This document shows, piece by piece, positions 3,162 through 8,791 of a DNA stretch of 64,000 nucleotides (position 1 is its first letter; each line of letters starts with the position of its first letter). The notes beneath the pieces are model-generated. The model saw only the letters and a program-made list of their open reading frames with translations, was not told the DNA's origin and ran no database searches. Origin of the DNA: Oikopleura dioica (Eukaryota; Animalia; Chordata); contig OU015568.1 of NCBI GenBank assembly GCA_907165135.1, forward strand, positions 11,222,001 through 11,286,000, read 5' to 3'. Position numbers and translations under genes: made by a program.

Positions 3162-3354
3162 TTTCTCTTTTTCGAAAAATGATGTTTCTGGTTTCAATTG
3201 CCCGCCAAGACGGAGTTTTGTGCTACAGCTGCAATTTTTCACACGACCTCCAATCTGATGAACAACAGTCTTTTAACAAACACACAACAGTTTTTTGCGT
3301 TTCATTAACAAAAATTTATAATAGGCTAGGAGTCGGGAATAAGTACAGAAAGAG

Positions 3355-3738
3355 TTAGAGGCCCATTTGACGGCCAAGTTCCATTTGTTGCATCTGTAGC
3401 GCTTGAAGTTGTGCGGGTTCTTGAAGTTCGCGCATATGAATCTGCATTTCAACCTGGAAGTCAAGATATTTTCTTACGCAGTTATCTTGAATCATTTAAA
3501 AGAAAATTTTGCCCACTGAAATTTACCTATGCAAACGGCCTCAACTCTGGACAATCCTCTGATTTCATTTTCTGTCATGACGCACTTGCTAAATAAGATG
3601 TCAGTCTTCCTTGATTCCATAGGGAGCTTACTGTTCACATGAATTTTGCATCCTCACAAACTGATCTTGCATGGCCTTAATTTGCATCTGTTGCATTTCT
3701 TGCTGCATTTTGAGCATTTCCATTTGTTGCTCATCCAT
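3355..3738 (-). CDS. TIMM10: Small Tim chaperone, TIM10-like (3 exons; missed by ORF track)
   Basis: Spliced product MDEQQMEMLKMQQEMQQMQIKAMQDQFVRMQNSCEHKCVMTENEIRGLSRVEAVCIDNCVRKYLDF... with twin CX3C motif; LSRVEAVCIDNCVRKYLD resembles TIM10 LSKGESVCLDRCVSKYLD. Confidence 0.8.
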
Positions 3739-3819
3739 TTTTACTTATTTTTTGACGCAATATTCTCTAAATTTAAGTTCTTATTGATTTATATATTTTA
3801 ACGAAAGAGAGAAATAGAA

Positions 3820-4335
3820 TCAGTAGACAGATACAGCGTGGTATTCAAGCCAAAGCTTGAAAGCAGGGTAAAGAGTGCGCATGTTGTTCTTGTGGAGCTG
3901 GTTGTTTTCGAATCGACAGAGAGATGTTTGAGACGTTTTTCGGCCAGTTATTGATGTCATCTCTTTTGCTGCTTGAGCTTGAGTGAGTCCAAGTTTTACT
4001 CGAAGTCGTCGAATCGCAAGCCGCATGCTGTCAATGGCATCATCTGTGATCAGTTCCGTGTCTGGTGAGGTAGGAGCTTGATACGGAGAAATCGGCGACA
4101 CTGGTGAAGATCGGGAAGCTCGAGTAGTTTTCATTTTGAACGACTTCGAAGGACTTGGCGATCGGGAAGCAACAGGGGATGTTACTTGGGCCGGGAATGG
4201 TTGCATGAACTTCGAGTATTCAAAGATCATTTGGTCGAAGAAGTGGGCGGACTCGGTGATGTTGTTAAATTCAAATCCGTTAAGGATGGAAAAGACTTCT
4301 TCGCCGTTGAGTTCTGGAAGTTGATAAGTAGCCAT
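3820..4335 (-). CDS. Intronless protein with a POU-specific domain but no homeodomain
   Basis: RLRVKLGLTQAQAAKEMTSITGRKTSQTSLCRFENNQLHKNNMRTLYPAFKLWLE matches the POU-S consensus RRIKLGFTQ..SQTTICRFE.LQLS.KNM.KL.P.L.KWLE; stop 7 codons later. Confidence 0.85.
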   Translation of the reverse strand: MATYQLPELNGEEVFSILNGFEFNNITESAHFFDQMIFEYSKFMQPFPAQVTSPVASRSPSPSKSFKMKTTRASRSSPVSPISPYQAPTSPDTELITDDAIDSMRLAIRRLRVKLGLTQAQAAKEMTSITGRKTSQTSLCRFENNQLHKNNMRTLYPAFKLWLEYHAVSVY

Positions 4336-4677
4336 GATTGTTTTTTTTTTGAGTTTTGATTTGATGAGTAGACGATCATGCTTCGAGATATTTATTGCAA
4401 CTTTCGCTTCCGACGGCGCTGAGGAGTGATAAGGTCTTCCGCGAAGGAATAGTTGAGAAAATGAGGCTCGCAGATGGGAGGAAACAGATGGGACACAGCG
4501 ATCTCAGATTAGGGATGAGATTGCGCTGATGCATATCTGTTCGTTGCTAATGAAAATAACGACTCAGCTACTTTTAAATAATTTTTATTGAATAATGAAT
4601 TGGGCGAAGAATGAGGTAGAGCAGAAATCTGAAAGCATGATATTGAAAAATTAGGACAGTAAAAAGTTCAGTAGAAA

Positions 4678-6210
4678 TTACTGAATACACAGTGATCCAG
4701 AGATTTTAAAAATTTAAGATGGCAAGAGTTGTCGTTACCCCGAAAATCCAAACACCAGTGATGATCAAAATTGAACCAATTGATACTTGAAGTATTTTCA
4801 TAAAGCTAGAATGAAGAGTTTCAGATTTAAATTACTTCCGACTTTTCTACCTTTTATGCCATCCAACATGGTCAACGGCTAGGTCGACCATAATCAACCC
4901 GGGGAATATCATAATAAAGAAAGCAGCTAAAGATCCAATTACTGAAATGACATCAGCAATATTTGGAACAGAAATCGCAAGTGCAAGAGCCGCTGTAAAC
5001 CACACAATTGTCGGGACGATCCTGCGCCATTTTTCCTTGCGAATTTTTTCTTCTTCAGGAATTTCATCATAGAAGGTATCCAATCCGGATATTGAGAGAA
5101 AAGCGGAACGTCCACAAAATGCCAGAATCGGATAGCTAGAGAATTATGTTAATGAAGGTGCGCTATTATTGAGTCGCACCTGGTAATCATTACAACGGCG
5201 ATAAGGGCTCTAGCGACGATAACCAGTGGGTCATTAGCTGGATAGGATTTCAGTATATCGGGGTTTACATCAAGTCCAAAGGAAAGGTAGCCGAATGTTC
5301 CAGCCAATGTGTAAACGAAACAACAAGAGATCAAGGCCAGACCAGCAACTAAGAATCGGTAGTAAGTCAAATTAGTCCAGAAACTCTCTACCTAACAACC
5401 AGGATTTTGGAGACTTATCGGCCATACTGGAGTAGATTGGCACCGAACTGACATGGCATTGATATGCGAAAAAGAGACTGGGCAAGGCCGACATAAATGA
5501 AGAAATAGAATAAGGCCATTCTGGAACTACCGAAGGACGCGGGTCTTGATCAGGCGTTGGATCGGCGTACCGAGTGACGATCACAAATACGACGAAGATG
5601 CAACTGAGAAACCCGAGGAGAGATGCATGGCGAAGAAAACCAATATCTTATGAGTTTGTTATAAAACGGAGTGATGACGAAGAATTACCTTTGGGAATAC
5701 AGAGAGGGAGAATAGAAACAAAACCAATGACAGTTATCGTGAATCGCCTATCCAGATACCAAACGTTGGTGTTTGAAAATATCTGTTCAAAAACCAAATC
5801 AAGCTGATCGCCCAGCACGATTTGGAAAGTAATGCAGCACCCGAAAGTATACAACATGATGAAGGTCATTGACATGACGCCAAATCTGACGCCAACGACT
5901 TCCCGGACAGTATCTTGGTAATTTGAGACGTTCTTCTCCTTGGCGGCTTTGGCTAGGAAATGAAGCCCGACGATAGAAAGAGCGAGGACGATGATTTGCA
6001 TGATCAGACTGATGCGCCATCCTCCGGCGAGCGCGTAAGCATAGGGGAAATTTAGTAGACCGGCTCCTAGCGCAGCATTACAAACAATAAAGATGGCTCC
6101 AAATTTGGAGACTCCCTCCTAGAAGAATTTATAAAGGTACTTGACAGAAACCAAATTACCGAGCTAGTTACACTCTCCCTTGGAACAAGTTGTTCAGTTG
6201 ATGAGTCCAT
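4678..6210 (-). CDS. SLC38A7: Sodium-coupled neutral amino acid transporter SLC38A7/8-like, multi-exon
   Basis: GAIFIVCNAALGAGLLNFPYAY, FAYQCHVSSVPIYSSM, AGTFGYLSFG, SYPILAFCGR, IGSLAAFFIMIFPGL; many TM segments. Confidence 0.85.
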
Positions 6211-6271
6211 ATCCCGATTCAATTATTCTAAAAATTTTTATGTAAATTTGAAAGTCTAATATAACAATATA

Positions 6272-8791
6272 TTAGTTTTGCAGTTGTTTAAGAGCAAGGG
6301 CCTCAAGATCTGCCGTTTCCATGTCTTCATCTGATTCGTCCTCATAATCGAAATCTTCTGTTTCTTTTGAAAGTTTTTGTCGCTTAGAGTAACTTTCGAA
6401 ATCATCATCACTAAAACGGTATAAGGGCGTCATTCTTAATCGGGCGTGTTACCTGTGTATCGATCCATCCGAGTCACCTCCGCCAAATGTCAGGTTATTC
6501 AAGAAATTATTCGTATCTTCATTCATTTTCTCTTCATCTGAGTGCGCCTCCTGCTCCTCCATGTTCTTGTTCAGTACATCAAGCTTCATTTGCTTCTTGC
6601 TCTTCATCTTGGCCTCGAGTTTCTTCCTCCTCTTCATCTCTTTCTCAGCCACTCGATCGTCCACATCTGCCTCCCTAAAATAAGTATTAGTTTTTCCTTC
6701 AATTTTATCAATAAAAACCTGAGTCTCGAATGAGCCTCAGCGGGATTGAAGTCGACCTCGTCTTCCGATTCTTCTCTTTCCTCATCTGACTCGCCGATCT
6801 TCTTCACCGTACCTTCCACTTCCCCTCTCAACAGTTTGCTCTGCAATCTCTTTTTCTGTCGTTTGGAAAGTCCTTCTTTAACCTTTTTCTCCGGCAGGTT
6901 CGCCAGCTGTTCTTCGTCAACTGTCACCGCCTTCTTTTCGAACATATCCTCAGCTTCATCTTCATTATCCGAATCATCACTATCAAGTGCATTTGGTTCC
7001 TCTTTAATCTCCTCTTTCTTTGCTTTTTCTTCTAGTATCGAGGATTTCTGCGTTTTCAAAAATCTCAATCGAGGGGTTTTGGCTAAACCTAATGAAGAAG
7101 CGATTTTGTCCAGATCAAGAGTGTCTAGCTTGAAGAGTTTTTTGTTCTTCGCCATATGCACACTAAAATTAAACTCAAAAACGAGAATAATAAGTCTACC
7201 TCTTGCAGTAGGCTGTGAATGCTCTGCTTCCGTATCCCTTTATTTCTTCTCTTTCCGCGCATAAAGATCTGAGCTTCGGGCTGATATCGACTATCATCTC
7301 TTTGTTATAAATCCACTCTGTAACATTCACCGGCGGCTTTCTCGACCTCAACTCTTTGATCATCTTCTTCTCTGACGGATTCAAAACCAAGACCGAGTTC
7401 CCAGCTTGATCCGATCTGGCGGTTCTTCCTGCTCGATGAATATATTCATCTACGCTTTCTGGACAGTCAAGTTGAACGACCCAGTCGACATTTGGAAAGT
7501 CCATCCCTCGAGCAACAAGGTCTGTGGCGAGAAGAAGAGCTCGATCTTTCTTGCAGAACTCATCGTACGTAGCCATTCTCTGATGCTGCCCCATTTTGCC
7601 ATGAAGACGCATCAGTGGAACACCAGGGGTCATTTTAAAGAAAACTTCTTTCGCATGCATTACTTGCTAATAGCGTTCATTATTGAAAAGAAATCTCGGA
7701 GAACACACCTTGCAAGTAGCAAAAAAGACGACAGTTTTTGTGGTTCCTTTGATCGCAACATTTTTCATGAAAGAAAATAGAAAGTTGAGCTTGTCTTCTT
7801 GATTTACGATACAGTAAGTTTGGTTGAGATTCTTTGGTGTCGCACTCTTTGAACCAGAGGTAATGTTCACAAATTTTGGATCCTTTAAACTCAGCCGAGA
7901 GAGCTTCGACGTCTGCGCGCTGAGGGTTGCTGAGAACAGCATCGTCTGTCTTCGAAGAGATCAGGTAAATACAAAGAGTTTCATTGTAATTTACCTTGTA
8001 GAAGGCAGAAACGAGATAATCTGATCTACTTGAGCTTGGAAGCCCATATCCAGCATTCTATCAGCTTCGTCAATGACAAAAGCTTTCACATTGTCAAGCG
8101 TGAATCCATGGGTCTGATCAAGATGTTGGCAGAGTCGACCAGGCGTCGCTAAAATGATTTACGAAACGTCGATTCTGAGCAACCAGACCTATGATAATGT
8201 TTGTTTTGGAGATGACTTTTGCTTCTTCCTCAACTGATTTTCCGCCGGTGACAAGGCCGGCAGAAAAGTCATGCTTTAGACCAATTTTTCGCAGAACATC
8301 GTAGATCTGCATCGAAAGCTCGCGCGTTGGTGAGAGGACTAGTCCACCTACTCCGTCGATTTGTGTCCATCTATTGCTCCATAAAATCTCTAATAGCGGG
8401 ATGAGGAAGCCAAGAGTTTTACCACTGCCTGTTTTCGCTGCTGCAAGGATATCTGAATCCGCATAAGATATTGAAGATTAAATTCTGCCAAACCATTTCC
8501 TTGGAGAGCGAGCATAAGGGTTTGCTGTTGAATTGGAGTAGGCTTGCAATCTTCCGGTAGATATCTCCTTAGTCCTCTCTGAGTCTGTGGTGACAGAGGA
8601 TAGCCAGCAAATGGAACATCCGAATCAAATTTTTCATTGTATCTGTCGACTTTTTCTTGTATCACTTGATCTTCTTTTTCCCACTTTTTTAACTTTGGCT
8701 TTTTGTTGAAATTTCCTTTTCTTTTATTGCCGCGAAATCGATTCTCTTTCTCCGGGGCCACTGCCGCCAACCAAGGCGTAACTTTGCCCAT
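6272..8791 (-). CDS. DDX10: DEAD-box RNA helicase DDX10/Dbp4, multi-exon
   Basis: [58 protein letters not shown]; C-terminal DLEALAL tail typical of DDX10. Confidence 0.9.

Follow-up and report, generated by a model that had tools for sequence, protein, structure and literature searches.

A gene for a POU-specific domain without a homeodomain in the larvacean Oikopleura dioica, and its family of relatives

POU-class transcription factors carry a homeodomain C-terminal to a POU-specific domain (POU-S), and according to one review the POU-specific domain had not been found without a homeodomain (PMC4901127). A stretch of 64,000 nucleotides from Oikopleura dioica (assembly GCA_907165135.1, contig OU015568.1, positions 11,222,001 to 11,286,000; hereafter the window) raises the question of whether this rule holds. 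A first-pass annotation of its sequence proposed a POU factor with no homeodomain, and it must be asked whether such a gene is real and complete, where it came from and how it might act on DNA. The features that bear on the first of these points are as follows.

3820..4335, minus strand: POU-S-only gene (P0001), intronless, 171 aa, no homeodomain (ORF, Pfam, dN/dS and orthologue RNA)
4201..4335, minus strand: N-terminal segment, acidic and aromatic, aa 1-45, with two predicted helices and a conserved LPxLxxxEV motif
4051..4200, minus strand: Ser/Pro-rich linker, aa 46-95, predicted disordered, seven SP/TP sites, variable within the family
3841..4044, minus strand: POU-specific domain, aa 98-165, four helices (Pfam, alignment and predicted structure)
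within 3841..4044, minus strand: domain positions Q44/T45/R49 as Q136/T137/R141, positions 53/57 as N145/K149, and basic R132-K133 before the recognition helix
3739..3819, minus strand: AT-rich spacer of 81 nt; in related locus L003 the TIM10-like gene has its trans-splice acceptor within the orthologous spacer, ~50 nt past the stop
3355..3738, minus strand: TIM10-like gene with two short introns, trans-spliced in a related lineage (Pfam and RNA)

The 171-aa ORF runs uninterrupted on the minus strand from its ATG at 4335 to the end of its TGA at 3820, as first annotated. Pfam Pou matches residues 108-164 with 53.1 bits (E 3.2e-14; cut-off 27), and matches to Homeodomain and HNF-1_N (both up to E 1) and to CUT are absent, which agrees with the proposal of a POU factor without a homeodomain. 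The domain is complete and ends in WLE, after which seven residues (YHAVSVY) precede the stop, the number of codons given before. AlphaFold2 predicts residues 101-160 at a pLDDT of ~95 and two N-terminal helices at ~70, with a disordered linker. The predicted domain lies within an rmsd of 1.4 Å of Oct4 and Oct6 POU-S, a fold search against 48,161 representatives ranks POU-S chains first (Z 11.9), and the closest solved relatives by sequence are Brn2 (7xrc, E 9.5e-09) and Oct6 (2xsd). POU-like domains of HNF1/HMBOX1 and CUT domains have a related helical fold (Z 6.1-7.8 for CUT domains) and normally accompany a homeodomain, but the present protein matches Pfam Pou instead and lacks the HNF-class pairing of a POU-like domain with an atypical homeodomain. 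The acidic and aromatic character ascribed to the N-terminus is borne out by seven D/E, one K/R and nine aromatic residues among residues 1-45, and the many SP sites ascribed to the Ser/Pro linker by seven SP/TP sites in residues 46-95. Residues 1-45 may serve in activation or in partner binding. A possible eh1 repressor motif at FSILNG was dropped as unconserved. An Atlas search with the whole protein gave only leads below 0.9 (Pou and CUT clusters, 0.83), and one with residues 1-50 found nothing. A bacterial XRE-type helix-turn-helix contaminant was also considered and rejected: HTH_3 scores 15.5 bits, below its cut-off of 23, and the gene is syntenic with spliced and trans-spliced animal genes.

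An ordinary POU gene could look like this if the ORF were only its first coding exon, with the homeobox further on or unusually spliced. GT dinucleotides at 3834 and 3828 lie shortly before the stop, and some gene calls in a related subfamily (FETN, below) end at an intron after helix 4 (P0063, P0067 and P0073 versus P0247, P0250 and P0252). Even the longer FETN proteins, however, finish 14 residues past the last Trp. A six-frame search of the window and seven related loci with a homeodomain profile, made from 87 such stretches in POU proteins, returned nothing better than E 0.63 (controls 62-95 bits); the same profile scores decayed homeodomains at 62 and 72 bits, and a homeobox split by several introns could score lower. 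Loose WFxNR-like pattern matches in the window and in locus L004 were discarded, having no homeodomain score with this profile. The seven loci, confirmed among 74 stretches from a metagenome scan and with 0.13 to ~5.4 kb of downstream DNA visible, all have a frame that stops at most nine residues past the last Trp, just after helix 4. AATAAA follows the stop by 26, 7, 85 and 26 nt in L004-L007, of which L004 and L007 are apparently the same gene. In the window, the stop and the ATG of the TIM10-like gene at 3738 are 81 nt apart, close to the ~80 nt first reported, and in a related lineage that next gene is trans-spliced ~50 nt after the stop, which upholds the earlier view that there is no room for a homeobox. 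In the related locus L001, the final intron of the upstream gene and the two introns of TIM10 are missing, and the POU-S ORF is retained with its stop. We infer from the absence of these three introns that L001 is an RNA-derived contig, although a contig that crosses several genes does not prove one transcript. Neither this spliced contig nor the RNA reads reveal splicing to a downstream homeobox exon, at a read depth low enough to leave room for a minor splice form. Among 7990 candidates of 329-2000 aa, the search for longer family members scored one hit, a canonical POU protein with its homeodomain, which is weak evidence. Two longer forms (P0016 and P0017) have W at the stop position and are read-through gene calls, not fusions. 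A hidden homeobox is hardly credible on this balance, and that the gene is real and homeodomain-free can be stated with high confidence.

Same-strand neighbours are an amino-acid transporter gene upstream and, downstream, the TIM10-like gene followed by an S28 peptidase gene. The TIM10-like identity is given by Pfam zf-Tim10_DDP (45.7 bits, scored on the L001 orthologue); the protein at 3355-3738 has Gln/Met-rich arms flanking its Cys motifs on both sides, and its L001 and L003 orthologues differ at 1 of 99 residues. Four RNA runs mapped on the window leave the ORF almost wholly uncovered because the reads come from another lineage, under 90% alike. The locus L003 aligns colinearly, with 70-80% identity, to the window's first 10 kb; on it the same runs reach mean depths of 2.3, 2.3, 0 and 0.7 over the ORF (an estimated ~8, 8, 0 and 4 reads) and 23, 29, 41 and 11 over the TIM10 exons. 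The orthologue is thus transcribed at a low level in a related lineage. Joints or loose ends are absent inside the L003 ORF in a listing that needs three reads. A loose end at L003 position 6552 (11 and 7 reads) corresponds to the 3' portion of the O. dioica spliced leader, whose sequence is printed in PMC6883708; the TIM10-like gene of L003 takes this leader ~50 nt after the POU-S stop, which fits an operon in a species with operons and trans-splicing (PMC6389100). Upstream in L003, none of the four runs has reads in the bin at 5761-5820, an argument against genomic DNA as the source of the reads. Single reads at 5821-6000 lie upstream of a TATA-like element, so that part of the ORF signal may be unprocessed polycistronic RNA. 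Single-cell reads at 6241-6480 share the orientation of the TIM10 reads and, as far as ~4 reads can indicate, seem to sit where a 3' end near the stop would place them. The intron-free stretch L001:1-1529 (window 3300-4960) covers the 3' end of the transporter gene, the POU gene and TIM10, which suggests either read-through or an operon longer than the POU-TIM10 pair.

Selection was estimated by the Nei-Gojobori method for pairs among the window, L001 and L003. Whole-ORF dN/dS is 0.06 for window and L001 (dS 1.69), 0.04 for window and L003 (dS 3.1, near saturation) and 0.06 for L001 and L003 (dS 0.55, unsaturated). In the last pair, dN/dS is 0.012 for the POU-S domain and 0.010 for TIM10. The gene is under purifying selection and is not decaying. 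This dN/dS comparison had been suggested at the outset, together with the expectation that a spurious ORF would be broken in other haplotypes; across the three lineages the ratio stays at 0.04-0.06 and the ORF is intact.

The gene also belongs to a multi-gene family, with relatives whose homeodomains are decayed, which the first-pass annotation missed. An initial search of 55 candidates found 12 relatives, which are 149-187 aa long and show 37-62% or 72-99% identity; all of them are Pou-only, and SQTSLCRFEN is invariant. Among 30 Pfam-scanned proteins of 150 listed representatives (186 found), 23 have Pou without a homeodomain and seven have a homeodomain. A profile search of 5354 candidates hit 47 proteins; by precomputed annotation each of them is Pou-only, and the 25 new ones have no homeodomain score. 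In an alignment (A4) of 49 proteins chosen by hand from the hits, near-copies included, Pou matches 49 of 49 and Homeodomain 0 of 49. These protein searches yield at least 47 distinct homeodomain-less POU-S domains. Residues after the helix divide them into three subfamilies, FENN (which includes the gene at 3820..4335), FETN and FEGK. A profile of the FENN N-terminus next picks, weakly (best E 0.001), the N-termini of eight FEGK rows and no canonical POU among 81 rows, which lends partly independent support to the clade; the FETN subfamily lacks the N-terminal motif.

Two trees, both of 72 columns and with long-branch warnings, place the family among POU genes. In an LG+G4 tree of 81 domains, which leaves out eight multi-domain proteins and near-duplicates, 47 homeodomain-less rows join (100/97), with an O. 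dioica POU protein that has a weak homeodomain (P0055) as their sister (100/88). Four proteins with no scored homeodomain (P0071, P0143, P0157 and P0179) fall outside this clade and may be fragments. A mixture-model tree of 40 of these rows joins 22 homeodomain-less rows (100/99) within three rows with decayed homeodomains (96/99). Class labels in the trees were presumed from class motifs, and a grouping with 'POU5-like' rows in the 40-row tree was set aside as long-branch attraction. The homeodomains of P0055, P0062 and P0069 are decayed (Pfam 29.3 bits, 22.5 bits and no match), with the usual WFxNRR absent, and these proteins are candidate intermediates of homeodomain loss. The nesting of the clade among homeodomain-bearing POUs, subject to the long-branch warnings, points to descent from a POU-class gene, most likely of the POU3 family. 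The family likely arose in larvacean tunicates by decay and then loss of the homeodomain, and marine sources and kinship suggest that it is larvacean-wide.

The residues of the domain bear on its possible function. Scoring covered 68 of the 81 rows (13 were skipped by the anchor pattern), with 45 homeodomain-less rows set against 20 canonical ones, and because the rows are kin the counts are not independent. R20, Q27, Q44, T45, R49, E51 and N59 are present in all 45 homeodomain-less domains. POU-S recognizes ATGC, and its Q44, T45 and R49 read the major groove (PMC11564870, available text); in the window protein these three are kept as Q136, T137 and R141. The recognition helix had been described as divergent, which is correct for positions 46, 47, 52 and 53 but overstated in that these base-reading residues are intact. 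All 45 homeodomain-less domains have a basic residue at position 40, and 41 of them also have one at position 41; at these two places most of the 20 canonical rows have N/T and D/V. The median net charge, with related rows counted, is +6 (3 to 8) in the homeodomain-less domains and +3 (1 to 6) in the canonical ones. L53 occurs in 0 of 45 homeodomain-less and 16 of 20 canonical domains and F57 is kept in two of 45, with polar or basic residues in their place (N145 and K149 in the window protein). In MORE dimers, a patch of L53, F57 and M60 receives a homeodomain residue (PMC9943670, available text); the window protein does not have this patch. Position 21, a Sox2 contact (PMC4465831, available text), is I, V or L in 36 of 45 homeodomain-less domains. 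Such a pattern is what a domain selected for DNA binding without a homeodomain would show. The protein thus resembles POU-class factors (Brn2/Oct6 of POU3, Pit-1, Oct1 and Oct4) in POU-S sequence, predicted fold and base-reading residues, and differs from them in lacking the POU linker, the homeodomain and the L53/F57 patch and in having basic residues at positions 40-41 and its own N-terminal motif. Binding of the octamer ATGCAAAT by both domains cannot hold as stated without a homeodomain.

Upstream of the ORF, the following elements were found.

4389..4394, minus strand: TATA-like TAAATA lying 59 nt upstream of the ATG, conserved in L001 and L003
4438..4445, minus strand: TTCGCGGA, which we take to be E2F-like, also upstream of a partial first gene copy in L004
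4471..4490, minus strand: two CATCTG elements, presumably of E-box type, one of them also upstream of both L004 copies
4529..4536, plus strand: ATGCATAT, a POU-type half site (first 8 of 12 MORE letters) ~200 nt upstream, also before the distant L004 relative; motif picked post hoc

The TATA-like element had been noted before. The order ATGCAT, CATCTG, TTCGCGGA and TATA-like element is the same in the window, L001 and L003. In L004, where protein identity is 36%, ATGCATAT and CATCTG precede both copies and TTCGCGGA precedes one; the first two motifs, chosen after being seen, occur together in 3 of 5000 shuffles of the L004 region, and the two ATGCATAT copies there are duplicates of each other. 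The 118 nt of upstream sequence in L006 contain none of these motifs, and ATGCATAT is not enriched in the window (four found against 1.51 expected; 8 of 100 shuffles reach four). POU-type input or feedback on this promoter is at most a lead. In L004 (594-944 and 2017-2514) the gene has a 5' partial tandem duplicate with its promoter. This first copy breaks off early in the domain and lies 1.4 kb ahead of the intact one.

Taken as a whole, these features make it rather probable that the protein is a transcription factor that reads ATGC half sites by POU-S alone, with the aid of a DNA-bound partner. In its origin, a fast-evolving POU gene, probably from POU3, would have been duplicated, and one copy would have lost first the quality of its homeodomain and then the whole homeodomain. 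Retention of Q27, Q44, T45, R49, E51 and N59 would let the domain still read ATGC, and two new basic residues before the recognition helix, together with a higher net charge, could offset some of the lost affinity. The rest of the affinity and specificity might be supplied by a DNA-bound partner such as a Sox or bHLH factor, for which Sox2 stabilising Oct4 POU-S on nucleosomes is the model, and the acidic-aromatic N-terminal helices may recruit a co-regulator, tuned by phosphorylation of linker SP sites. Against a stand-alone factor it must be said that isolated canonical POU-S binds weakly or not at all and that a four-base site gives little specificity. As described in the available text of PMC9943670, the octamer is not bound by isolated Brn2 POU-S, presumably because this domain is negatively charged, and Oct1 POU-S binds at high concentration only; on nucleosomes, Oct4 POU-S binds with Sox2 help and the homeodomain is unseen.

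Both functions first suggested for the gene, a stand-alone DNA-binding factor and a dominant-negative partner of POU proteins, can be compared on these residues. The former would fit better than a dominant-negative docked on POU proteins, because the DNA-reading residues are invariant and the homeodomain-receiving patch is lost. A related possibility is a competitor of full-length POU factors that occupies ATGC half sites or soaks up Sox or OCA-type co-factors and so damps targets, like homeodomain-less isoforms of other families. Intact DNA-reading residues, low expression and a POU-type site upstream of the gene in two distant lineages, as in a feedback target, agree with such a role, but docking on a full POU protein is unlikely given that L53 (0/45) and F57 (2/45) are replaced by polar or basic residues, half a domain pair would compete poorly with a two-domain protein, and the existence of three subfamilies, each with fixed residues of its own, suggests distinct roles; we consider a competitor unlikely. 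Self-dimerization through the N-terminal helices on palindromic ATGC pairs, in the manner of a phage repressor and with no other partner, is less probable again. The two-helix segment is conserved and the fold is of the XRE repressor type, yet its motif, short and with an acidic and aromatic make-up, looks more like an activation segment and is missing from FETN, and published models have two ATGC-bound POU-S domains clash on an 8-bp palindrome (PMC9943670, available text), which leaves only some spacings workable. Loss of DNA binding, with the domain turned into a protein-interaction module, is very improbable. Isolated POU-S is a poor DNA binder and can detach from DNA, free for co-factors (PMC9943670, available text), but the invariant residues face DNA, the known protein-docking patch is lost and positive charge has risen.

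Homeodomain loss has parallels in other two-domain homeobox classes. Pax1/9, Poxm, Poxn and nematode NPAX likewise lost the homeodomain and kept their other DNA-binding domain. The PAIRED domain has two subdomains and binds well alone, whereas POU-S is one small helix-turn-helix unit of weak affinity. Homeodomain-less splice forms of mammalian POU genes are isoforms and not dedicated genes. The PAX losses, together with half-decayed forms such as Pax2/5/8, are described in PMC4901127. Human HDX, also a POU-related gene with one of the two domains, is the mirror case, with a homeodomain and no POU-specific domain (PMC2211742, available text). In O. dioica, CAG5077206.1 (P0050) is a homeodomain-less paralogue from another subfamily, 44% identical over 72 aa, and CAG5098920.1 (P0055) is the clade sister with the weak homeodomain (Pfam 29.3 bits); both are annotated but unnamed gene models whose records are silent on architecture. 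The available text of PMC4245813 does not mention Oikopleura, and a homeodomain-free POU gene family is apparently undescribed in the openly available papers searched. Duplicated homeobox factors pattern the house-making epithelium of this animal, for which CRISPR lines and single-cell data exist (bioRxiv 2023.07.18.549157, available text).

A conserved, transcribed gene and dozens of relatives break the rule that POU-S always occurs with a homeodomain, and an apparent gradation leads from full POU proteins, by way of decayed homeodomains, to no homeodomain at all. Surveys based on the homeobox would miss such genes. It is quite possible, although we hold this tentatively, that larvaceans evolved the first dedicated family of homeodomain-free POU factors, in which POU-S was re-engineered, by gain of a basic patch and loss of the homeodomain dock, into a self-sufficient and possibly nucleosome-reading unit with three subfamilies, decayed-homeodomain intermediates being still alive in the same genomes. 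If true, this would offer a natural way to test whether POU-S by itself can match the action of Oct4 POU-S on nucleosomes, a question close to Oct4-nucleosome engagement and posed in an experimentally accessible animal. Because isolated canonical POU-S barely binds DNA, the family provides natural variants for asking what makes POU-S sufficient alone. Other POU architectures were met in the same searches. Five proteins (P0042, P0047, P0054, P0060 and P0071) are tandem arrays of two to four POU-specific domains with no homeodomain match, possibly a second, independent homeodomain loss, although some may be fragments. In P0045 and P0059 two POU-S domains precede one homeodomain, and P0064 is a doubled unit of POU-S plus homeodomain.
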